Shown: one piece after another, positions 3,073 through 45,362 of the stretch
Numbering within the stretch: position 1 is the stretch's first letter
Layout of the letters: each line of letters begins with the position of its first letter
Virus record (IMG/VR): IMGVR_UViG_3300025413_001239
Length of the DNA: 64,000 nt
Strand: one strand, 5' to 3'
Origin: a virus
Taxonomy: Duplodnaviria; Caudoviricetes
Notes under the pieces: model-generated
The model's database searches: none
What the model saw: the letters and a program-made list of their open reading frames with translations, nothing else
What the model was told of the DNA's origin: nothing
Program-made: the position numbers and the translations under genes

Positions 3073-3447
3073 ATGGCTAAGAAACTTGTTAGACTTACAA
3101 CCCATCAAATAATTGATGAAACGGTTGCGTTTTACGAAAAAAATATTCGAGCAAAACAAGACAATTGGTGCGAGTATCTAACTGATGATGGTAGAATGTG
3201 TGCCGTTGGTAGATGCTTAACCCCTAAGAGTTTGCAGATAGCCCAAACAGAATTTGGAGGTAAGGACTTTGGTAGCTTAAACTTGAATAGGATTAAGTTT
3301 AAGGCTCAATATACAGGTAAATGTGACGACTTTTGGTCATCACTACAAAGCCTACACGATAGCGAGAAATATTGGAATGGTAACCATTTAAGTTATATGG
3401 GTGAAATTAAGGTTAAAGCCTTAAAAGAACGATTTGCAAATATTTAA
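3073..3447 (+). CDS. Hypothetical early protein (Cys/His-containing)
   Basis: Own promoter cassette; CEYLTDDGRMCAVGRCL and LQSLHD motifs. Confidence 0.7.
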   Translation: MAKKLVRLTTHQIIDETVAFYEKNIRAKQDNWCEYLTDDGRMCAVGRCLTPKSLQIAQTEFGGKDFGSLNLNRIKFKAQYTGKCDDFWSSLQSLHDSEKYWNGNHLSYMGEIKVKALKERFANI

Positions 3448-3463
3448 TCAAAAATGCTTGTAT

Positions 3464-3553
3464 ATGAATAAAACAATTTGGATTGGTATATCAATTATTG
3501 TTTCAGTTGAATTAATTGGTATTCTTATGGGTTTAATTAAACTAATAAACTAA
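3464..3553 (+). CDS. Small membrane peptide (29 aa), not in ORF track
   Basis: MNKTIWIGISIIVSVELIGILMGLIKLIN; TAATG coupling to the next ORF. Confidence 0.45.
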   Translation: MNKTIWIGISIIVSVELIGILMGLIKLIN

Positions 3554-3753: not shown

Positions 3754-4062
3754 ATGATTAAAGCAATTAAGATTGATGTTCAGAACAGAACAGTTACTGA
3801 GGTTGAAATTCAAAACAACTTGGAAGCCTATTATAAGGAGATAGGCTGCGATTTAGTTGAGTTTGTTAAGGTCGATGAGGTTAACGACCTTATGGTTGAT
3901 GAAGAGGGTTTATTCACAAAGAATCCATTCTTTATAATGGAAGGCTTATATCAACCAATGAGAGGCAACGGCTTAATAGTTGGGGTTGATTTTGAAGAGG
4001 GTGAAACCATAAGCACAACCCTTACAGTAGATGAAGTAAAAGCAAGAGTACACTTTGTATAG
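3754..4062 (+). CDS. DUF3846-like phage protein
   Basis: LEAYYKEIGCDLVE...LMVDEEGL...MRGNGLIVG pattern. Confidence 0.55.
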   Translation: MIKAIKIDVQNRTVTEVEIQNNLEAYYKEIGCDLVEFVKVDEVNDLMVDEEGLFTKNPFFIMEGLYQPMRGNGLIVGVDFEEGETISTTLTVDEVKARVHFV

Positions 4063-5255: not shown

Positions 5256-5423
5256 AAACTGTAATTTTATTAAGTGATTAAGAAATTTCAGCAAAGATAA
5301 GTAGTTTATTTAAACCAACAAATTTATTTTATCCCTTTTTATAAACCTATTAACATAACTACAATAAGGGCGTATATTTATACGATTTTTTAAAAAGTTT
5401 TTGTTTATGTTATTTTACACCCT

Positions 5424-5500
5424 TATCTTTGCAATGTTATTATAACAGGACGACATAAAAAATCGGGAGGTGTACTCCACTATGCGCTTTATTTTTATAT
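5424..5500 (+). ncRNA. Putative ~65-75-nt small RNA, copy A (coordinates include the -7 promoter element)
   Basis: TTTG-N20-TATCTTTG promoter, no ORF, core ATCGGGAGGTGTACTCC (5462-5478) shared with copy B, T-rich end. Confidence 0.45.
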
Positions 5501-5552
5501 AACCATACATACGTTGGAATTTACAATATTATTCTAATACCGCCAAATAAAG

Positions 5553-5585
5553 TTATCCCCAAAATGATTTTTAAAATGTGGATAA
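5553..5585. promoter_or_regulatory. Inverted DnaA-box pair upstream of the DUF932 promoter
   Basis: TTATCCCCA (5553) and TGTGGATAA (5577), 24 bp start-to-start. Confidence 0.6.
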
Positions 5586-5667
5586 CTTTATTGCAGTTTA
5601 TTTAAACCATAACCTATCTTTGCTGAAATTTATTAACCGCTTCGAGAGAAGCACAATATTACAGATT

Positions 5668-6534
5668 ATGAAATATGTTAATTTAAAAGGTCAAAAATTA
5701 CAAAATGATGACGTGTTCCCAACAGTAGAAATTAAGTCATTTAGCGAGGCAATTAACCTCAAAACTAGGAAAGGTTATGATAATTTAGTTATCAGTAACG
5801 GCGAAGTAGTTAACGTTTGTAGTGATAGTTATGCACTACTTAAAAATGAAGACTTTTTTTTAAAGGTAGAAGAAAAGTTAATTGTTGACGCTGATGTAGA
5901 ATACACTAAAAGGAGTATAAACCGAAATAACCGTTCTTTTGCGGTTGATTACATTTTAAATGACGATAGGTATGATATTGTAATTAATAGCGGCAAAAAG
6001 GACGTTATTAAACCAATGCTTCGCTTTGTTAACTCTTATGATGGTAGTGCCAAAACAAAGGGTTCTTTTGGGTATTTTAGACAAGTTTGCACTAATGGTT
6101 TACACATTGCTGAAACAATGTTAAACTTTGATGTTAAACATAGGGGTGCAATAGCTGAAATAGTTCTCCCTAAGATGGATAACCTAATTTCAAATTTTAT
6201 GGAAAACGAATACTACACGTTAAAAAGTAAAGCTGAAACCCTTACAAATAGCAAAATTAGTGATGTAGCTAAATTTGTACAGGATATTTGTAAAAAAACC
6301 AATATCTTTAAATTTGAAAAAAGCGAAAAGAACCCCGAACCTTCAAAGTACGCTGAACAGGTAATAAACACAATTTTTAGTGAGGCAAATTACCTAAACG
6401 TTGTACCTAATTTGTGGCTGGGTTATAACTCATTTAATTCAATCCTTACCGATGGAACGTTTAGCAAAACATTCGAGAAAGAAACCGAATTTGATAACCT
6501 TATATTCAATAGGGTGCTTGAAATGGCAGGTTAA
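5668..6534 (+). CDS. DUF932 (DUF945) family protein
   Basis: FVNSYDGS...GYFRQVCTNG signature; ATG at 5668 follows the promoter and ACAGATTATG. Confidence 0.75.
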   Translation: MKYVNLKGQKLQNDDVFPTVEIKSFSEAINLKTRKGYDNLVISNGEVVNVCSDSYALLKNEDFFLKVEEKLIVDADVEYTKRSINRNNRSFAVDYILNDDRYDIVINSGKKDVIKPMLRFVNSYDGSAKTKGSFGYFRQVCTNGLHIAETMLNFDVKHRGAIAEIVLPKMDNLISNFMENEYYTLKSKAETLTNSKISDVAKFVQDICKKTNIFKFEKSEKNPEPSKYAEQVINTIFSEANYLNVVPNLWLGYNSFNSILTDGTFSKTFEKETEFDNLIFNRVLEMAG

Positions 6535-6555
6535 GTACTTAACCGCTTAAAAGTA

Positions 6556-6583
6556 AGGGTAACAGAAATGTTACCCTTTTTTT
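6556..6583 (+). terminator. Intrinsic terminator
   Basis: AGGGTAAC-AGAAAT-GTTACCCT followed by a T run. Confidence 0.8.
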
Positions 6584-6839
6584 ATGCCCTTAACTATCCA
6601 TGTACACTAATGTGTACCATACGTGTGAAAATAGCCGTTTTTAGCCCATTTTGAGCCGTTTATTACCAAAATAAGGTAATCATATTAACAGCTTTATTTT
6701 AAGCCAAATTTGAGCCTTAAAATCAATTCTTTGATTACAATAAACCTATTTTTGCACAATAAAGCTATTAACTTTATTATAAGCCTATTAACTTTATTAA
6801 CCACTTAACAAAACATAAAAAAATCTTATGTTAGTAAAA

Positions 6840-6989
6840 TGTGGATAATTTTTAGATGTTAATAACTATGTGGATAAAATGTGGATAAGTACTTAGTAAC
6901 ATTTGTGGATAACTTATGTGGATAAAATGTGAATAACTTTTTTACTTATCCACATTTGTTAATAACGTATGCGGATAAAATGTGGATAA
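6840..6989. repeat. Array of DnaA boxes (oriC-like)
   Basis: Perfect TTATCCACA/TGTGGATAA at 6840, 6869, 6880, 6904, 6917, 6946 and 6981; near matches at 6928 (TGTGAATAA), 6970 (TGCGGATAA), 6857 and 6957 (TGTTAATAA). Confidence 0.85.
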
Positions 6990-7044
6990 CTTTTTTTGGT
7001 GGTATGAAAAAAAAGTTGTACCTTGCATCCGCATAGGCACATAT

Positions 7045-7127
7045 ATAAAAAAATAAAAGGCAGGTCGGAGTACACCTCCCGATGTCCTTTAGAACTATCG
7101 TCTTGTTATATTAACACTGCAAAGATA
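7045..7127 (-). ncRNA. Putative small RNA, copy B (inverted relative to copy A)
   Basis: Minus-strand TTTG-N20-TATCTTTG (7151-7120), the same GTTAwTATAACARGACGA 5' part, core at 7083-7067 and a U-rich end. Confidence 0.45.
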
Positions 7128-7156
7128 TAGCAGCAAAATGACATGGACAAAAAAAG

Positions 7157-7189
7157 TTATCCACATAAGTAAAATAAAAATGTGGATAA
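7157..7189. promoter_or_regulatory. Inverted DnaA-box pair between divergent promoters
   Basis: TTATCCACA (7157) and TGTGGATAA (7181), 24 bp start-to-start as at 5553/5577. Confidence 0.65.
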
Positions 7190-7276
7190 CTTTATCTTGT
7201 TTAATTAAACCAATATCAAAAATTTACCCTATCTTTGCAGTCTTATTAACCGCCGAAAGGCACTAAATTACAGATT

Positions 7277-7864
7277 ATGAATACAGTTGAAACGGTACAA
7301 ACTACTGAAATTGCAGTAAGCGAAGTAGCTGCAAAAGTGATTAACTTAGCTAAATTAGCTATCCAAAAATCGCCAACAGGTGTTAGTTTTGTTAGTATTA
7401 GGAATTATACTAATCAATACGGCGAAATTTCAAACCAAACAATTAATTTAGGCGAAAGCTATGAGAAAGCTAAATTAAGGGATATTGAAACGCTTGAAGG
7501 CTTGGACATTACCAATGCTGAATATGGCTTTAAAAGTAGTGTTTTAATGCTTGAAAAAGCAAGGGTTGAATTAATTGAGGCTTTTATTAAGCCAAACGAA
7601 ACCCGCTCAAAAGGGCAAACAGAAGCCTATACAAACATCTGTAAAGGTATAAGAGTGCATAACCAAACGGGATTGCTTTATTTATACGGCTATCGTATAA
7701 ATAAGAGTGTTTTGCAAAGTGGTACATACCCAACTAAAAATAGTAAGGAATTAACCATAGCGAAGGATGAATTAAGAAAGCTATTAAAGACAAATAAATT
7801 TGTAAACTTCTCTTTACAGGTCGGCAATGAATTAAGAATGGCTGGGGATACTTTAGAATTGTAG
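7277..7864 (+). CDS. Hypothetical phage protein
   Basis: 195-aa ORF with a TATCTTTG promoter (7230) and ACAGATTATG leader. Confidence 0.8.
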   Translation: MNTVETVQTTEIAVSEVAAKVINLAKLAIQKSPTGVSFVSIRNYTNQYGEISNQTINLGESYEKAKLRDIETLEGLDITNAEYGFKSSVLMLEKARVELIEAFIKPNETRSKGQTEAYTNICKGIRVHNQTGLLYLYGYRINKSVLQSGTYPTKNSKELTIAKDELRKLLKTNKFVNFSLQVGNELRMAGDTLEL

Positions 7865-25719: not shown

Positions 25720-27531
25720 CTAATTGGTGTCGGGTACGATATTTTTTATATTAATAATTTTAATCTCACCAGTTAGTTTATTTCTAACTGTTATTTCTGT
25801 ATCACCACAAATACACTTACCAACACCTGTTGGACCTAAAAAGATGAATGTACCAACTGGTTTATTTTTAGGCTTAATACCAATACGATTTCTCTTGATG
25901 GCTTTAACAACTTTAGCAACAGCTTCGTCTTGACCTATGACTTTACCAGTTAACTCCTTATCAAGGGTAAGTAATTTTTTACTTTCTTGGGTTGAGATTT
26001 TAGTTAATGGGATACCAGTCATCATCGATACAACTTCGGATATTTGTTCAACACCAACAATTGTTTCTCTTTTTTCAAGCTTAGTAGTCCAAGCTTTCAT
26101 AGCGGCTTCTAGTTGCTCATTGATTTTGTTTTGTTCATCCCTAATTTTTGCAGCGTCTTCGTATTTTTGTTTGCTAACAACTTCTTTTTTCCTGATGATA
26201 AGTTTGTTTTTCTTATCTTCAAGGTCCTTAATATTCTGTGGTTTTTCAAGACTAATATTAGTTGCAGCACCAGCTTCATCCATAACATCTATGGCCTTAT
26301 CTGGCATTGACCTTTCCATGATGTATCTATCAGAAAGCTTCACACATTCTTCAATAGCTTCGTCAGTATAAACAACGTTATGGTGTTTTTCATACTTTTC
26401 TTTAATATTTTGAAGAATAACCTTAGTTTCTTCGAGGGTTGGTTCCTCAACAAGAACTTGTTGAAATCTTCTTGTTAAAGCACCATCTTTTTCGATGTGC
26501 TCACGATATTCATCAAGGGTTGTTGCGCCGATGATTTGTATTTCACCACGAGCCAATGCTGGTTTAAAGATGTTACTAGCATCTAAGGCACCAGATGCGT
26601 TACCAGCACCAACGATTGTATGTAATTCATCGATGAATAAAATGATATCTGTGTTTGCTTTACATTCTTCAAGAACGGCTTTCATTCTTTCTTCAAATTG
26701 ACCACGATACTTGGTGCCAGCAACAAGAGAAGCTAATTCAAGTGAATAAATCTTTTTATTAGCTATAATTCTAGGTGCGTTACCTTCTTTAATAAGAAGT
26801 GCAAGCCCTTCAACGATTGAGGATTTACCAACACCTGGTTCACCGATGATAACTGGGTTGTTTTTCTTTCTACGAGAAAGAATTTGTGAAATCCTCTTGA
26901 TTTCGTTAGTACGCCCAACTACTGGGTCGATTTCATTTTTTTCTACTGCTTTGCTGATATCTCTACAGAAATTATCCAACACTGGTGTTTTACCACCATC
27001 AGATTTTCTTTTAGATTTTCTAAAACGTTCTGAATCGTTTGTAAAATCATCTTGTACATCTTCATCGTCCATCGGACCGTTTTTAAAGTTTTCTTTACTT
27101 TGCATTATCATTTTTTTAAATGTTACATAATTGACACCGAATTCATTTAATATATCAGAAATCGGTGTTTTAAAGGCTAAAATAGACAATAATAAGTGTC
27201 TTGTGTCGATTACTTTATCATTAAGTTTCTCACATTCACTATCTATTATTTTAAATACATGTTTAGCATCTTCAGAGAAGATTATATTATTACTAAATTT
27301 GACTAGTACTCTTGGTGTTAAATCGCTTCTTAGGTAATCATAAACAGCGATTTGTAATGCACTAATATCAATTTTATTCTTTGTTAGAATTTCTACACAC
27401 TCATTATCGTTATCGTTTAATAGTGATATAACTAAGTGTTCTGGTTTAACTTTATTATCATCAAAGCTTTTAGCTTCTTCATTAGCTTTATTAATAATAA
27501 ATTTAACCTTAGGATATATTTCTCTATTCAT
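25720..27531 (-). CDS. clpC: ClpC N-terminal part (Clp-N, AAA1, UVR-like coiled coil, start of AAA2) plus a 31-aa N-intein
   Basis: [49 protein letters not shown] and [11 protein letters not shown]|CICGDTEI. Confidence 0.92.
25723..25815 (-). mobile_element. Split intein, N-fragment (31 aa)
   Basis: Cys1 directly after the Walker A Lys; block [11 protein letters not shown]; stop codon after 31 residues. Confidence 0.8.
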
Positions 27532-28300: not shown

Positions 28301-30724
28301 ATGAAAAATGGGTTAGATGAACAATATATCGAATTATTAGAGGATATATTAAAAAATGGTATTGAAAAAGAAACCAGAAATGGTAAGGTATTATCTGTTT
28401 TTGGACGTGAAATTAGATATAAATTTAAAGATGGTAAATTTCCACTTATAACTACCAAAAAAATGTACTTTAAGGGTATTGTAACTGAATTACTATGGTT
28501 CTTACAAGGACGTACTGATTTACGTTATTTACTTGAGAACGATTGTAATATTTGGACGGGAGACGCTTATAAGAGATATATTTTTAATTCAGAATGGTAT
28601 CCAATTGCTGGTTCACCTAGTGGATTTATTGGCACTAAATCTGATAGTGATGAAATAATGACACAAGGAATATTCATTGAACGTATTAAAACAGACGATG
28701 AGTTTTCAAGGACATGGGGTGATTTAGGACCTGTGTATGGGTCTGGTTGGCGTAATTGGAAGTTCACAGATAAGTTTACAAATGGAGAACAGATTACTTA
28801 TGTAAATGGAAAGGTAGACCAGATTGCAAACTTAATCGAAGACCTTAAAACAAATCCAGATTCTCGCAGACTTATGGTAAATGCGTGGAATTGTTCAGAG
28901 CTCGACCAAATGGTTTTACCACCATGCTTTACTGAAGATATGATGGTTGCATGTGTGGATGGTTATAGGAAAATATCTGAAATAACCACTAACGATTTGG
29001 TGTTAACTGAAGATTGTTCTTATCAAAAAGTTTATGAACTACATGAAACAATGTATAATGGCGATTTAATTAAATTTAAAGTATTTGGCAATACTAAATA
29101 TATAACATGCACCCCTAATCATCCGTTTTTAATTAAAGATAAAGGTTATATTAGTGCTAATGAAATAATTGAAGATGATTACTTAGCGATACCTATAAAT
29201 AGAAATTCAATTATACCGTCATTTGATACGTTGTTAAAATGCAACCAATATGGTGAAAAATTAGTAACCACAAAATTAGATAATTTTGATTATTGGTTTT
29301 TAATGGGGTATTTTATGGGAGATGGTTGGTTAATAAGTTCAAAAGAAGAGGTTTGTTTTGTAATAAATGACAACCAAACGGATTTAATACTACCTAGATT
29401 AAAAAATATAATAGGTTTAGCTAAATTAAATAATTCTGGTATTAATTGCACAAAATATGTCGGTAAGAAAAAACAAGTTTTTGAAATTTTATCTATGTTT
29501 GGAAAATATGCTGATGGCAAATTTATACCAAAATTTGTTTATGATGCGCCTAAGGAGTACATTGAACAATTTATTGAAGGTTATTTTATGGCCGATGGGT
29601 GTAAAACAAAAGACGGTATAAGTTATAGTACAGTATCTGAAAATATTGCGTATGGGGTACAATTACTATATGCAAAGTTAGGTGTTAAAGTTAGTGTATA
29701 TTTTCAAAATAGACCTAAAAAAAAGGTTATTGAGGGGCGTGAGGTAAACCAAAAAAATACATTTTCAATAAATGTATACAAACAAAAAAATAAAACAAAA
29801 AAATATATTTTAGACACCGACTATTTGTGGGTTAAAATTAAAGAAATTAATAAAATTAATTTTAATGGTTATGTTTATAATATATCGGTTGGTAACAATC
29901 ACACGTATAACGTGTACAATCTAATCAACCATAATTGTCATTATGGATTTCAATGTTATACTAGAGAATTGGGTTTGGAAGAAAGAAGAGAGATTGCTAG
30001 AAATAAATTAAATTCTATAGAATGGGGTGATGTTATTAAATTAGCTCATTACAATGAGACTTATGATAAGTATAATATACCAACCAGAGCATTATCATTG
30101 AAATGGAATCAACGTTCAGTTGATACACCATTAGGTTTGCCATTTAATATAGCATCTTATGGTCTATTGTTAGAGATACTTGCAAAAGAAGTTAACATGG
30201 TACCAGATGAATTGATTGGTGGTCTTGGTGATTGTCATATTTACTTAAACCAAATTGAAGGTGTTAAAGAACAGATTGGAAGAGAATATACAGTTGAAGA
30301 GGGTTTACCTAAAACGATTAAATTAATAGGTTACGGTAAAGAATTGGAATTTTCATTGACAGATAAAAGAGAAATAGAATATTATGGTAAAACCGAAGGT
30401 AGCAATGAAACTTTGTGGAGAACTGAAAAATTTAAAGATAATGAAGTATTCTACCAGACAGAATTTGGATGGGGTGTTTTTCTAAATACTGACACTTTTG
30501 AAACTGTCACATACGATGGAACTGAATGGGGTGGTCAAAAAATAAACATCTCTAAGAGAACTCGTGAACCGTTTCCGTTACCAAGACTTAAGCACATGAA
30601 AACTGATGCTTTCTATAAGTCATTATCTGAAGACCAATCGTTGTATGGACATTTAGATAATAAAGATTTTCAAATTGAGAATTATCAATCACATCCGTCA
30701 ATTAAATTTCCGTTAAGTAACTAA
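28301..30724 (+). CDS. thyA: Thymidylate synthase with intein
   Basis: FPLITTKK, ELLWFL, DLGPVYG, PDSRR, LPP|..|CH, QRSVD..LGLPFN and GDCHIY. Confidence 0.95.
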   Translation: MKNGLDEQYIELLEDILKNGIEKETRNGKVLSVFGREIRYKFKDGKFPLITTKKMYFKGIVTELLWFLQGRTDLRYLLENDCNIWTGDAYKRYIFNSEWYPIAGSPSGFIGTKSDSDEIMTQGIFIERIKTDDEFSRTWGDLGPVYGSGWRNWKFTDKFTNGEQITYVNGKVDQIANLIEDLKTNPDSRRLMVNAWNCSELDQMVLPPCFTEDMMVACVDGYRKISEITTNDLVLTEDCSYQKVYELHETMYNGDLIKFKVFGNTKYITCTPNHPFLIKDKGYISANEIIEDDYLAIPINRNSIIPSFDTLLKCNQYGEKLVTTKLDNFDYWFLMGYFMGDGWLISSKEEVCFVINDNQTDLILPRLKNIIGLAKLNNSGINCTKYVGKKKQVFEILSMFGKYADGKFIPKFVYDAPKEYIEQFIEGYFMADGCKTKDGISYSTVSENIAYGVQLLYAKLGVKVSVYFQNRPKKKVIEGREVNQKNTFSINVYKQKNKTKKYILDTDYLWVKIKEINKINFNGYVYNISVGNNHTYNVYNLINHNCHYGFQCYTRELGLEERREIARNKLNSIEWGDVIKLAHYNETYDKYNIPTRALSLKWNQRSVDTPLGLPFNIASYGLLLEILAKEVNMVPDELIGGLGDCHIYLNQIEGVKEQIGREYTVEEGLPKTIKLIGYGKELEFSLTDKREIEYYGKTEGSNETLWRTEKFKDNEVFYQTEFGWGVFLNTDTFETVTYDGTEWGGQKINISKRTREPFPLPRLKHMKTDAFYKSLSEDQSLYGHLDNKDFQIENYQSHPSIKFPLSN
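28925..29935 (+). mobile_element. Intein (337 aa) with LAGLIDADG endonuclease in thyA
   Basis: CFTEDM start, TPNHPF, LMGYFMGDG, FIEGYFMADG, VYNISV and NHN|C. Confidence 0.9.
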
Positions 30725-41024: not shown

Positions 41025-44000
41025 ATGGCTAAACAAAATTTAACAATATTCCAAAAATTGGGTCAAATACTAGGTCCAGAAGGAGTAAAACAAAAACAAC
41101 AATTACCAGCTCAAAATCAACCGCAAAGATACAACATTGGTAAGGATGTCTTATTAAAGACTGATGACAAAAAAGCTTATGAATTAGCTAAACTACAAGC
41201 ACAACAAAATAAGTACTTGGGTCAAGTTTGGAAAAAAGTTGAACACGGACTTTTTCAACAAGCTGTTAACTATGAAACCACACGTATTGGTTCTTATTCT
41301 GATTTTGAATCGATGGAATTTTATCCAGAAATAGCTGCTGCTTTAGACATTATGATGGAAGAATCGACTACACTTAATGGTAATGGTCGTATGGTTAATG
41401 TTTATTCTGATAGTGTTAGGGTTAAGGGTATTATTGAAGACCTTTTATTTAATAGGCTTGATATGCATACATCATTACCAATGTGGACCAGAAATACTCC
41501 AATACGTGAAGATAGTATTATACCATTATTAGATGGTACTGAAATTACTATCAAGGAACTATCTAATAGAGTTAAAAATGGTGAAGAAATATGGTCTTAT
41601 GCAATTCAAGATGTTACCAAGGCAATTGTACCAAGTAAAATAATTTGGTGTGACCTTACTAGAAAGGATAGTGAATTATATCGAGTAACACTTGATGATG
41701 GTTCATATATTGATACAACACCAGACCATGAATATATGCTTAGAGATGGTTCATATAAAAGAGCTGATGAATTAACTGAAGGACAGTCTTTAATGCCTTT
41801 TTATACTAGAAAAAGTGAAAAGAAAAAAGATTGTATTGTAGGTTATGAAAAAATTTATAATCCAAGTACAACTAAATATAAGTTTACTCATTCTTTAGTT
41901 GCACATGAGTTATCAAATTGGAAAAATAGTAAATTTATAGAACAAACCAAAAAAGGTATGACTATAGAAATTACCGATGATTGTTTTGATTATATTTCAA
42001 CTATAATAAAAAATAATGAAAATTATGTTGGTGTAAATAAATTAACTAAATTACTTAGAGCTGATTCTAATTTTATTACGTTGTTTAAAGAAAATTATTC
42101 TTTAAAAAAAGATATTATTAAATCTATTAACCCAACAACATTAACTAAAGTATTATTTAGAAAAACAAATCAGAATTATTTTGATTTTGTTTTATCAATA
42201 AAACCAAGTTTAGTATTAGATAAATCATATATCAAAGCTAAAGCAATTTATTTAGGTAAAACTAAATCAAACGTATTATTAAATCATAAAGTTGTTTCAA
42301 TTATTAAACTTTCAGAGACTTCTGATGTATATTGTTTAGAAGCGGTTGGACCTAATGGCGAACATGATAGACATAATTTTCCAGTGTTAGGTAAAGATGT
42401 AAATGGTTCAGTATCAAGAAGTTCTGGTGTATTTTTAGCCAACTGTAAATACGGTGATAATTTCGTTTATTTAAATATTTCAGATACTAATGGTGTTATA
42501 GGTGCAAAGCAAATGCCTAACTATGAAATGGAACGTAGAGATGGTGGTCTTTTTGATATGATTTCACAAAGAACTGATGAAGATTATAAAACAGATAAAA
42601 CTAAGTATTATTGGAGAGGTCGTGATGTTGAATTTAACTCATGGCAAATAGCACACTTTAGACTTCTTGGTGATGATAGAAGATTACCTTACGGTACATC
42701 GGTGCTAGAAAAAGCTAGAAGAATTTGGAAACAATTATTATTATCTGAAGATGCTATGCTTGTTTATCGTGTTACACGTGCACCTGAGCGTAGAATATAT
42801 AAAATATATGTTGGTAATATTGATGATAAGGACGTTGAAGCATACGTAAATGAAATTGCTAACAGGTTTAAAAGAACCCCAATGGTTGACCCACAAACTG
42901 GGCAAGTTGATTTAAGATATAATCAACTTTCAAATGACCAAGATTACTTTATTCCAGTTAGAAGTGAAGATGCTCCAAGTCCTATCGATACATTACCTGG
43001 TGCTTGTTTATCTTTGGATACGAGGATTCCACTATTAGATGGTAGAATACTTGAACTACAAGAAATTATTTCTGAATGGGATAATGGTAATAAGGACATG
43101 TGGGTTTATTCTGTTGACCCTCAAACTGGTGCATCAACAGTTGGTCCAATCACTTGGGCTGGAGTTACACGTAAAAATACTCAAGTTTTGAAGATAACCC
43201 TTGATAACGGTAAATCAATAACTACAACACCAGACCATAAGTTTGTACATAGAACCAATGGGTTTGTGGAGGCACAAAATCTTGTTATTGGTGATAGTCT
43301 GATGCCGTTTTATACTGATATCGCTAAAATAAAATCAAATTCTAATAATGGTTATCAGAGAATTTGGGATACGGCTACTCAAAAATGGGTTTTTACACAT
43401 AGATTAGTCAAAGAAATTTTATCCAATACTGGGTTAATAAAAGATTTTGAATTTGATACAAAATATATTGGTACTGATAAAAAAATAATACATCATAAGG
43501 ACCATAATAGATTTAATAACGCACCAAACAATTTGGTAATGATGAATGTTGGTGACCATATGAAATATCATCAATCAGTTATTAAAGAAACTATTTGGGC
43601 TAACCCAGAACTTAATAAGGCTAAAATTACACTTGGCGTTAATAAATTCATTTCAAATTTGACTGATGAGGAAAGAGCAATAAGGGCTAAAAAATCAAGA
43701 AATAATTCCGTTACCACAAGAGATAAGGCTAATAAAACGTTTAATGGCAATATTAATAAAGTAGAAATTATTTCAAAAAGAGGTAAGGCTATTGCTGAAG
43801 CAAAGTCAATCCCAGAGTTTAAAGAAAAATTATCTAAGATAGCAGCTAATAATTGGCTAGTTGATGGTTATAAAGAAAGAGTATTCTCAAAAAAACAAAC
43901 ACTTACTTTTTCCGAAAATCTTTATATGATGTTTTTTGAGATGTTTAAACAGCATGGTAAAGCTGATGCTACACTTGCTGAATTAAATCAATCGATTGAG

Positions 44001-45362
44001 TTCATGAACGAATTCACTTCTAGTAATCGAGACATTAGAAGTTCAATTACTAATTTTAATGAATTTACACATAATCATCTTGAAAAGATGTTAAAGAGGA
44101 GAGGATTTAAAAATTATCGTGATTGGTGCAAGGTAACCGCTAAACAACTGGGATACAAGAATGTTAGAGCTTGGAGGTACAGTATAGAAAAAGGCTCTAA
44201 AGTACTTCTATATAATCATAAGATTGTATCAATTGAATGGTTAACTGATTTACAAGATACAGGAACAATCACTGTTGATGGTGAGGAAAAATATCAATCA
44301 ACTCACACATTTGCTTGTGAATCAGGCATTTATGTAAAAAATTCTAATCTAGACCAAATTGCTGATATTGAATACTTACAAAAGAAATTATTTACAGCCT
44401 TAAGGGTACCGAAACCATTCTTAGGTTTTGAAGAAACAACTGGTGATGGTAAGAATTTAGCGTTACAGGATATTCGTTTTTCTAGAACAATCAATAGGAT
44501 TCAACAGGCCATGCTTCAAGAGCTTAATAAGATTGTTATTATACACTTATATTTACTAGGATTTGAAGATGATTTAGATAACTTTACTTTAACACTTAAT
44601 AATCCATCTACACAAGCTGAAATGCTTAAGGTTGAGCATTTACAATTGAAGATGACATTGTTCAAGGATGCTGTATCTGACGCTGGTAATGGCTTTGCTC
44701 CAATGTCAATGACTAGAGCTAAACGAGAAATTCTTGGTTGGGCCGATAATGATATTAAACAAGACCTTCTTGAACAACGTATGGAAAAAGCTGCCGCAGC
44801 TGAATTGGCTAACTCAGCAAATGTTATTAAGCATACTGGTATGTTTGACGTTGTTGATAGACTTTATGGTGATATGAAATTAGCACTTAAGGGTGGTGGA
44901 ACTCCACCAGAAGGTGCTGAAGGTGGTGCTGCTGGTGGTGCTGCTGGTGGTGCCGCTGGCGGTGGAGCTGGTGGCGGCGGTGGATTCGGTGGTGGTGGAA
45001 TTAGCCCAGAAGACTTAGATTTTGGAGCTGAAGGTGGTGAAACGCCAGAAGCTGGTGAGGCTGCTGGTGGTGAGGCTGCTGGTGGTGAAACACCAGCAGC
45101 TGGTGGTGAGGTCGCACCAGAAACGACTGCTGAAGCAATTATTAAAATTGAAAATTTATTAACTGAAAGTAAATCAAAAATTACTAAAAAGTTAAATGAT
45201 AGAACTGAAAAGTATAAAAATAGATTTTTTAATAATTTAATTGATATGGTTGACCATGAGCAAAAACCATTAGATAATGTGAAAATAATTGATAAAAACG
45301 TAAAAATTAATGAAACTGTTAATTCTATGATTAAAGACATTGATGATATGTTAAAAGATTAG
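41025..45362 (+). CDS. gp20: Portal protein (T4 gp20-like) with two inteins
   Basis: MEFYPEIAAALDI, CKYGDNF, EDAMLVYRVTRAPERR, QDYFIP, IDTLPG and DIEYLQKKLFTALRVPK; about 684 aa after removing both inteins. Confidence 0.92.
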   Translation: MAKQNLTIFQKLGQILGPEGVKQKQQLPAQNQPQRYNIGKDVLLKTDDKKAYELAKLQAQQNKYLGQVWKKVEHGLFQQAVNYETTRIGSYSDFESMEFYPEIAAALDIMMEESTTLNGNGRMVNVYSDSVRVKGIIEDLLFNRLDMHTSLPMWTRNTPIREDSIIPLLDGTEITIKELSNRVKNGEEIWSYAIQDVTKAIVPSKIIWCDLTRKDSELYRVTLDDGSYIDTTPDHEYMLRDGSYKRADELTEGQSLMPFYTRKSEKKKDCIVGYEKIYNPSTTKYKFTHSLVAHELSNWKNSKFIEQTKKGMTIEITDDCFDYISTIIKNNENYVGVNKLTKLLRADSNFITLFKENYSLKKDIIKSINPTTLTKVLFRKTNQNYFDFVLSIKPSLVLDKSYIKAKAIYLGKTKSNVLLNHKVVSIIKLSETSDVYCLEAVGPNGEHDRHNFPVLGKDVNGSVSRSSGVFLANCKYGDNFVYLNISDTNGVIGAKQMPNYEMERRDGGLFDMISQRTDEDYKTDKTKYYWRGRDVEFNSWQIAHFRLLGDDRRLPYGTSVLEKARRIWKQLLLSEDAMLVYRVTRAPERRIYKIYVGNIDDKDVEAYVNEIANRFKRTPMVDPQTGQVDLRYNQLSNDQDYFIPVRSEDAPSPIDTLPGACLSLDTRIPLLDGRILELQEIISEWDNGNKDMWVYSVDPQTGASTVGPITWAGVTRKNTQVLKITLDNGKSITTTPDHKFVHRTNGFVEAQNLVIGDSLMPFYTDIAKIKSNSNNGYQRIWDTATQKWVFTHRLVKEILSNTGLIKDFEFDTKYIGTDKKIIHHKDHNRFNNAPNNLVMMNVGDHMKYHQSVIKETIWANPELNKAKITLGVNKFISNLTDEERAIRAKKSRNNSVTTRDKANKTFNGNINKVEIISKRGKAIAEAKSIPEFKEKLSKIAANNWLVDGYKERVFSKKQTLTFSENLYMMFFEMFKQHGKADATLAELNQSIEFMNEFTSSNRDIRSSITNFNEFTHNHLEKMLKRRGFKNYRDWCKVTAKQLGYKNVRAWRYSIEKGSKVLLYNHKIVSIEWLTDLQDTGTITVDGEEKYQSTHTFACESGIYVKNSNLDQIADIEYLQKKLFTALRVPKPFLGFEETTGDGKNLALQDIRFSRTINRIQQAMLQELNKIVIIHLYLLGFEDDLDNFTLTLNNPSTQAEMLKVEHLQLKMTLFKDAVSDAGNGFAPMSMTRAKREILGWADNDIKQDLLEQRMEKAAAAELANSANVIKHTGMFDVVDRLYGDMKLALKGGGTPPEGAEGGAAGGAAGGAAGGGAGGGGGFGGGGISPEDLDFGAEGGETPEAGEAAGGEAAGGETPAAGGEVAPETTAEAIIKIENLLTESKSKITKKLNDRTEKYKNRFFNNLIDMVDHEQKPLDNVKIIDKNVKINETVNSMIKDIDDMLKD
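41499..42443 (+). mobile_element. Portal intein 1 (315 aa), Pro at position 1, class-3-like
   Basis: WTRNT|PIREDSIIPLLDG aligns with CLSLDTRIPLLDG of intein 2; TTPDHEY, VYCLEA and FLAN|CKYGD. Confidence 0.8.
43005..44342 (+). mobile_element. Portal intein 2 (446 aa) with HNH endonuclease
   Basis: TLPGA|CLSLDT, TTPDHKF, THRLV...IHHKDHNRFNN.PNNL and GIYVKN|SNLDQ. Confidence 0.88.

Follow-up and report, generated by a model that had tools for sequence, protein, structure and literature searches.

What role might be played by two short, inverted repeats, each behind its own promoter, that flank a group of DnaA boxes in a phage genome? The question is raised by a stretch of 64,000 nucleotides (nt), hereafter the window, from a virus of the Caudoviricetes (IMG/VR virus record IMGVR_UViG_3300025413_001239; the whole record has 148,708 bp and an estimated completeness of 44%). 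The original prediction, made from the letters of this stretch, described two inverted, promoter-driven copies (A and B) of a ~70-nt non-coding RNA that share a 17-mer, and both copies were found at the sites it had given. Within the window, the 17-mer ATCGGGAGGTGTACTCC has exactly two occurrences, 5462-5478 on the plus strand and 7067-7083 on the minus strand, compared to a chance expectation of 0.01, and the block GTTAWTATAACARGACGA is present at 5436-5453 (+) and 7098-7115 (-). Our comparative analysis strongly suggests that A, B and a third copy, C, are genuine genes of structured non-coding RNAs. As to what they do, we favour, with about even confidence, a reading in which A and B are two of three genes for a ~65-72 nt RNA of an uncatalogued family that would act early and in trans; this trans-acting mechanism is much less certain than the status of the copies as RNA genes.

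Alignment of copies A and B gave a mean column identity of 82% across 165 columns, running from the -33 region through the U-rich end. The third copy lies outside the window, 8.6 kb before it on the minus strand (G000:C1:29200-29271; labels in G denote whole virus records, G000 being the source phage, and labels in L denote contig loci, of which L036 lies within G000). Copy C is 88% identical to copy B over 66 nt and has a 1-nt deletion in its core. A search of the 148-kb record with nhmmer found A, B and C as its only full copies. The positions of the features are collected in Table 1, in which the start of the copy A RNA was inferred to lie ~4-6 nt past the -7 box, and the bit scores refer to a covariance model, R1, built from nine copies.

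The anatomy of the RNA and all counts of conservation were derived from 35 distinct copies. A -7 box of the form TAnnTT[TC][GA] is found in 34 of them, nearly always 38-55 nt upstream of ACUCC, and 24 copies also have the -33 element, with a stretch between the two boxes that varies in sequence from copy to copy. The predicted transcript begins with a 5' hairpin, P1, which has 3-7 bp, a loop that varies and, in most cases, GACA as its 3' arm; the two arms covary across the family (GUC/GAC, AUC/GAU, ACC/GGU and GUUA/UAAC). A short purine linker, ARGA, connects P1 to a second hairpin, P2, of 12-21 nt. The base of P2 is fixed as C-G/G-C, and its tip varies freely yet is compensated, as seen in the forms CGAUGUU/GAUAUCG, CGAUAUC/GAUAUCG, CGAAUCU/GGGUUCG, CAAUAUU/GAUAUUG, CGGCACU/GGUGUCG, CGCU-GCGA-AGCG, CGGU/ACCG and CGUUUUUC/GGAGAACG. 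Then follows the core, with the consensus GGRRGURUACUCC, in which G, GU and ACUCC are invariant, even in divergent members such as GAGAGUAUACUCC and AAAGGUAUACUCC. Beyond the core there are 13 nt, commonly starting as RACCUAC, and then a U-run; at least four consecutive U are present in 25 copies, mostly exactly 13 nt past ACUCC, and absent from the other 10.

Table 1. Features around small-RNA copies A and B, in positions of the window.
Feature	Positions	Strand	Details
Promoter of copy A	5400..5431	+	-33 TTTG at 5400-5403, 20-nt spacer, -7 box TATCTTTG at 5424-5431
Small RNA, copy A	5435..5496	+	covariance model R1 68.9 bits, E 1.5e-17; U-run at 5488-5496 ends the RNA
P1 of copy A	5435..5447	+	5' hairpin UGUUA-UUA-UAACA, by folding
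P2 of copy A	5451..5465	+	basal CGA/UCG pairs alone, A-rich 9-nt loop
Core of copy A, GGAGGUGUACUCC	5466..5478	+	column counts over 35 distinct copies
DUF932 gene between copies A and B	5668..6534	+	Pfam PF06067, E 8.8e-14; 288 residues
Terminator-like hairpin and T-run after the DUF932 gene	6555..6583	+	AAGGGTAAC-AGAAAT-GTTACCCTT-TTTTT, read from the sequence
DnaA-box array between the DUF932 gene and copy B	6840..6990		read from the sequence; specific to the source phage
Last DnaA box TGTGGATAA with promoter-like TTTG-N20-TACCTTGC	6981..7026	+	antisense into copy B; -7 box degenerate
Small RNA, copy B	7047..7116	-	R1 82.2 bits, E 1.5e-21; P1 7104-7116, P2 7080-7100, core 7067-7079, U-run end 7047
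Promoter of copy B	7120..7151	-	-7 box TATCTTTG at 7127-7120, 20-nt spacer, -33 TTTG at 7151-7148

Both hairpins are supported by compensatory changes. On the alignment produced by the model, 88% of the cells of P1 and P2 are paired, compared to 32-51% in slid controls, and double-sided changes occupy 51 cells against 14.6 in shuffles, with none of 500 shuffles reaching 51. The three inner pairs of P2, which are absent from the model, likewise covary. Folding that does not depend on the alignment closes P2 end to end in 31 of the 35 copies, with a mean z of -2.43; P2 of copy B has an energy of -4.6 kcal/mol (z -2.4), and copy A is a weak member of the family, with a P2 folding energy of 0. Moreover, G.U cells (43) outnumber A.C cells (13), which indicates that the strand that folds is the promoter-side strand. 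The segment that had been taken for a free, variable linker is thereby reinterpreted as the tip of the P2 hairpin, kept through compensatory changes. The selection on an RNA that the original prediction had suspected is supported by the covariation of P1 and P2, the strand preference of the G.U pairs and the promoter retained in nearly all copies. In the locus L045, three copies (1909-1976, 3420-3491 and 3903-3971) carry a P1-like palindrome (CTTTGC...GCAAAG) that overlaps the -7 promoter box, so that its 5' arm would escape transcription; P1 may be missing from these copies, or the palindrome may have a role as DNA.

The 3' domain is harder to interpret. A GGAG-GUGUA-CUCC hairpin had been proposed within the shared 17-mer as a conserved structure; it can be formed in most copies, but it does not covary, its closing pair being A-C in 12 of the 35 copies and its second pair broken in three. 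Two terminator registers were counted and a third was tallied by script, and none of them covaries. An alternative pairing of GGRRGURUA with the variable 3' tail, which would leave CUCC in the terminator loop, is ~70% paired, with covariation that is not significant. In copy C, the core has lost an A and the 3' arm is correspondingly shorter (GGGUA/UACCC), a hint of a stem formed with the 3' tail. RNAalifold, run on the fitted alignment, recovered only the base of P2 and two weak pairs. K-turn and loop-E readings of the domain were also weighed by eye and could not be established.

The claim that the element contains no open reading frame (ORF) holds in part. No ORF is conserved across the family, but copies A and B do carry antisense ORFs in the same frame, of 31 and 35 codons, respectively, the ORF of B starting only at TTG. 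An antisense micro-ORF was rejected, as its frame is broken by indels in P2, whose lengths of 12-21 nt span all residue classes modulo 3, and by the 1-nt deletion in copy C; the same indels, not divisible by 3, exclude a conserved ORF on either strand.

The original prediction recognized no known RNA family, and the Rfam search agrees, with no match at the gathering score over the whole window. When Rfam 15 was searched at E values up to 10 over positions 5300-7300, nothing covered copy A. Two weak matches fell on copy B, namely sRNA_2410, antisense to B and scoring 24.3 bits where gathering requires 61, and mir-5014, which clips the 3' U-run; lying far under their gathering scores, both were dismissed as chance matches. 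Exact matches to the 17-mer in public collections (one viral, 15 genome) were also attributed to chance, and the three inspected were GC-rich, coding-like sequence. A gapped pattern scan of metagenome contigs identified six true homologues (L023, L024, L028, L029, L031 and L033), all at AT-rich loci and, except for L024, with a U-run at the end; among the metagenome homologues, the standard -7 box is found in five and a variant, TAACTTCG, in two. Covariance modelling with R1, a check that had been proposed, extended the family across further contigs. It matched 18 copies in the first metagenome contigs and the source phage, 28 further copies at 12 loci of 10 IMG/VR contigs, and 27 further, increasingly divergent copies at loci from ~20 more IMG/VR contigs of up to 362 kb, counts that include identical rows and overlapping loci. 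Overall, the search enlarged the family by ~60 copies, spread over at least 30 contigs of uncultured phages and five metagenome contigs, with one to seven copies per record in whole-record searches, often grouped within a few kb. The divergent members fit the pattern GGG-hairpin-AGAGTAGACTCC.

Outside these contigs, a degenerate 20-mer of the core had no exact match among the genomes of 185,579 prokaryote species, each represented by one, R1 found no copy in the whole genome of Flavobacterium phage immuto, and BLAST of two copies against cultured phages returned chance matches only. Relatives sought in viral contigs with the DUF932 protein, with the next protein and with a three-sequence DUF932 alignment yielded none. 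Judged from these searches, T4-like and jumbo phages of Bacteroidota carry this RNA as a multicopy family that has not been catalogued. One of the records, G004 (IMGVR_UViG_3300027754_005987), which has two copies, is classed by IMG/VR as a provirus and could aid the identification of a host.

The source itself is, by its gene content and promoters, a large T4-like phage with a Bacteroidota host, probably a flavobacterium. The assignment follows from three features: the window encodes a T4-type major capsid protein, a portal protein and a large terminase; it is rich in Bacteroidota promoters; and its nearest cultured phage via the capsid protein is immuto, at ~40% identity. Promoters of the form TTTG-N19-21-TAnnTTTG have 18 full matches in the window, five-fold above the 3.5 expected, and none of 100 shuffles reaches 18; the promoters of copies A and B belong to these matches. 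Sixteen of these matches fall in the first ~17 kb, an early region built of single-gene cassettes among which copies A and B are placed. A scan of the window for tRNA and tmRNA genes found none. Elsewhere in the window, an intein that includes a LAGLIDADG endonuclease lies within the thymidylate synthase (28301-30724); the portal protein, of T4 type (41025-45362; 1,445 residues), contains intein-splicing domains and a weak HNH match under the Pfam cut-off; and a ClpB/ClpA-like AAA+ protein with a Clp_N domain is encoded at 25720-27531.

The pair had been described as organized around the DnaA array, but its conserved neighbour across the family is a gene of the DUF932 family, whereas L024, L028, L031 and L033 have no DnaA box. 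The full bracket, with a co-oriented copy upstream of the DUF932 gene and a convergent copy downstream, is also present in L033, L045 (G003), L046 (G008) and L052 (G005); L055 is apparently the same phage as L046/G008, and the two were counted once. A downstream convergent copy alone accompanies the second DUF932 paralogue of the source phage (copy C) and the DUF932 genes of G006 and L059. The exception is G002, in which a divergent copy lies upstream. Thus, among the nine DUF932 genes of RNA-bearing records, eight are met at the 3' end by a convergent copy, and five of them have the co-oriented upstream copy too. In G000, all three RNA copies adjoin the two DUF932 paralogues, whose proteins are only 16-20% identical; of the three copies in G005, two lie on either side of the DUF932 gene. 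A separate promoter and a terminator-like end were assigned to each DUF932 gene, and the ends of the RNA gene and the mRNA gene are 57-512 nt apart, so that no overlap between the RNA and the DUF932 mRNA is expected. The DUF932 gene of the window and the gene next to it share a 5' leader (5620-5670 and 7240-7279) composed of TTATTAACCGC, a small hairpin and AATTACAGATTATG.

DUF932 proteins are widespread in phages without the small RNA, and the family also occurs on plasmids and integrative elements. The AlphaFold model of the window's DUF932 protein (5668-6531) has a predicted local distance difference test score (pLDDT) of 90.3 and a predicted template modelling score (pTM) of 0.86. It consists of an alpha/beta sandwich and a helical C-terminal half, and the near-invariant residues include R138, C141, N143, H158 and E239. 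Against solved folds, Foldseek gave no match at E values up to 0.001, and the best Z of VIA-align, 8.3, was within noise; a sequence search against the PDB found no relative. Among the papers listed as mentioning DUF932, no title or abstract addresses its function.

A perfect DnaA box is absent from 11 of the 16 RNA-bearing sources tallied, and an array occurs only in G000. In other phages, the boxes near copies stand singly, not in arrays, and are joined to a promoter directed at the RNA gene. Composites like the one that runs into copy B are found in L045, as TGTGGATAA-CTTTATTTGG-N20-TACCTTTG (~3990-4045), and in L042, as TAACTTTG (~1450-1515); their likeness to the composite of the window was judged by eye, with no alignment. 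The form shared by the three phages, antisense to the small-RNA gene in each, is TGTGGATAA-CTTTATTTGG-N20-TAcCTTTG. Composites of a box and a promoter also stand ahead of the DUF932 gene (5578-5620) and of the next gene (7180-7240). In L036 (10143-10200; G000:C1:29142-29199), two inverted DnaA boxes make up the arms of a long hairpin with a T-run behind it, which looks like the intrinsic terminator of the first DUF932 paralogue. That the RNA genes point at the DnaA array therefore reflects, in part or more, the box-bearing promoter facing the RNA gene, which is poor evidence for an origin, and the DnaA boxes of the source phage may in part be transcription control sites.

In the reading we favour, the RNAs would be made early and in quantity from several promoters, P1 and P2 would serve as scaffold and protection, and the invariant GURUACUCC would be the working part. 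This element would be read in trans by a protein, for which the RNA may be a decoy or a cofactor, or would pair with a host RNA. A protein-binding ("sponge") role, one of the hypotheses of the original prediction, is possible, and the conserved bracket makes DUF932 the best candidate for the partner. Several observations weigh on the other side. Eight of the 11 pairs had already guided the fitting of the alignment on which the pairs were counted, and many rows of this alignment are paralogues or come from kin phages, so that the cells are not independent events. The whole-RNA folds of A and B are no better than those of shuffled sequences (z -0.75 to +0.15), and the 3' domain yields no single supported structure. 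Nineteen RNA-bearing loci, which are short flanks of 1-15 kb, have no DUF932 match, and R1 found no copy around the DUF932 gene of the cultured Flavobacterium phage 6H. The predicted duplexes between the RNA and the DUF932 mRNA are overall no better than those of shuffled sequence and inconsistent in position, and the complementary sites of at least 9 nt in G000, L033, L028 and L024 are only the opposite strands of the RNA genes themselves.

Two other readings retain something of the local arrangement. In the first, a facing promoter, often with a DnaA box, would drive a leader transcript that crosses the RNA gene in antisense on its way to the next gene. The small RNA and its promoter might restrain this transcript, through collision and duplex formation, as a convergent-promoter or antisense switch, to which copies elsewhere could add by pairing through the common core. 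At L033a, L045c and L042b, a full promoter is directed into the RNA gene, and the distance from the model match to the end of its -7 box is 22 nt; a -7 box is found equally far away at L028c, and a full promoter at 29 nt at L052a. Convergent -7-type boxes lie within 75 nt of 10 of the 35 copies, where ~5 would be expected, and both the composites described above and the finding that complements of the core in the checked phage sequences are confined to the opposite strands of RNA genes agree with such a switch. However, such promoters accompany only about a quarter of the copies, which is roughly twice the expected share, the -7 box facing copy B is degenerate (TACCTTGC) and copy A faces none, and a role in cis leaves the covariation of P1 and P2 and the invariance of the core unexplained; we consider the switch unlikely. 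It seems similarly improbable that the bracket is a dedicated module in which the RNA, or its hairpins in DNA form, would be bound, processed or used by the DUF932 protein. The convergent copies at eight of nine DUF932 genes, the G005 arrangement and, in G000, the closeness of B and C next to strongly diverged paralogues argue for it, whereas the loci without a DUF932 match, the frequency of DUF932 in phages without the RNA and a confident model that matches no nucleic-acid enzyme or RNA-binding fold argue against it; the promoter kept on the copies would also be needless for a purely DNA-level repeat. The more specific proposal, that DUF932 recognizes the P2 hairpin together with GURUACUCC as an RNA-protein module, we regard as equally doubtful.

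The remaining explanations are far less probable. An origin-linked RNA that primes replication or forms an R-loop at the DnaA-box array, as hypothesized originally, would suit the direction of A, B and C, which all point at DnaA boxes; a perfect box lies at most 150 nt downstream in seven of 37 tallied copies (an upstream box only for B), and L042, L043 and L045 have the sole perfect box of the locus there. The idea nevertheless fails on the distribution of the boxes, which shows no constant tie to the RNA: the four loci named above and seven further ones hold the RNA without a perfect box, the boxes of other phages are single and attached to promoters, those of L036 are the arms of a terminator-like hairpin, and the U-run would end the RNA short of the boxes. 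We hold this explanation to be very unlikely. Another hypothesis of the original prediction, a decoy for the 30S subunit that offers GGAGGUG to the anti-Shine-Dalgarno sequence, is scarcely credible. This motif is present in A and B, and GGAGG is kept in 20 of the 35 copies, but the other 15 replace it by GGAAG (12 copies), GGGGG, GUAGG or GAAGG, distant members have GAGAG or AAAGG, and the invariant part of the core is GURUACUCC rather than the purine tract; the decoy fails because GGAGG is not conserved. Bacteroidota rely little on Shine-Dalgarno pairing, which also counts against it. RNA anti-CRISPRs (Racrs) are short, promoter-driven, structured phage RNAs, solitary repeat units thought to be decoys for host proteins, and the present RNA resembles them in being short, structured, multicopy, phage-carried and driven by its own promoter. 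By contrast, its P2 varies freely in length and in the sequence of its tip, as a repeat mimic would not, and its core was absent from the prokaryote genomes in the exact search; mimicry of a CRISPR repeat or of another host RNA seems highly improbable. Finally, the locus might work as DNA, as an operator or recombination cassette, or through an antisense micro-protein. By-eye translation keeps the antisense ORFs of A and B in frame across both conserved blocks, P1 of A and B is palindromic at the transcription start, and some palindromes of L045 overlap the -7 box. The micro-protein is largely refuted by the frame-breaking indels, and compensatory changes with a one-strand excess of G.U are unexpected for a duplex protein-binding site; we give this explanation hardly any weight.

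Among characterized systems, the FopS/GibS RNAs of Bacteroides thetaiotaomicron are multicopy small RNAs whose consensus structure is deposited in Rfam (PMC11697453). Like the phage RNA, they are paralogous genes of ~65-70 nt with TTTG/TAnnTTTG promoters, a terminator and one highly conserved stretch (PMC11697453). They differ in that FopS has a single-stranded 5' seed (R1, not to be confused with the covariance model) directly followed by the terminator hairpin (PMC11697453). The RNA described here, by comparison, begins with a hairpin that a second, covarying one follows, and its invariant stretch belongs to the 3' domain; phages carry it, its core was not found in bacterial genomes, and it has no match in Rfam.

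Among type I toxin-antitoxin pairs, txpA/RatA and bsrG/SR4 of Bacillus subtilis have a convergent antisense RNA at the 3' end of the gene. The small RNA genes described here are likewise transcribed toward the 3' end of a protein gene, but DUF932, with 288 residues, is no small membrane toxin, and the duplex energies are overall no better than for shuffled sequence. In the REPtron, a RAYT transposase gene lies between inverted REP elements, of which more copies are dispersed, and the PeSL of T4-type phages are promoter/stem-loop cassettes. The phage locus resembles the REP/RAYT system in having a gene bracketed by inverted, hairpin-bearing repeats that are also dispersed between genes, and it resembles PeSL in consisting of short regulatory cassettes between small early genes. 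In contrast, the copies of the phage RNA keep a promoter and usually a U-run, and the strand that folds is the strand that is transcribed. Compared to RAYT, the DUF932 model has no confident match to an HUH transposase or to any solved fold.

Bacteroidota phages are abundant in lakes, seas and the gut. To our knowledge, the regulatory RNAs of phages are poorly characterized except in a handful of model systems, and hardly anything has been learned about them in Bacteroidota phages. The retention of this structured RNA, in several copies under promoters of their own, by dozens of large uncultured phages, together with a 9-nt invariant element, suggests an early function worth multiplying. The fixed place of the RNA around DUF932 ties two uncharacterized elements together and opens both to binding and expression assays; if DUF932 were the partner, this would be the first functional handle on a family found in phages and prophages. 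In addition, the box-bearing promoters that face RNA genes in the source phage and two relatives suggest that the "origin-like" DnaA boxes of the source phage may partly be transcription control sites.

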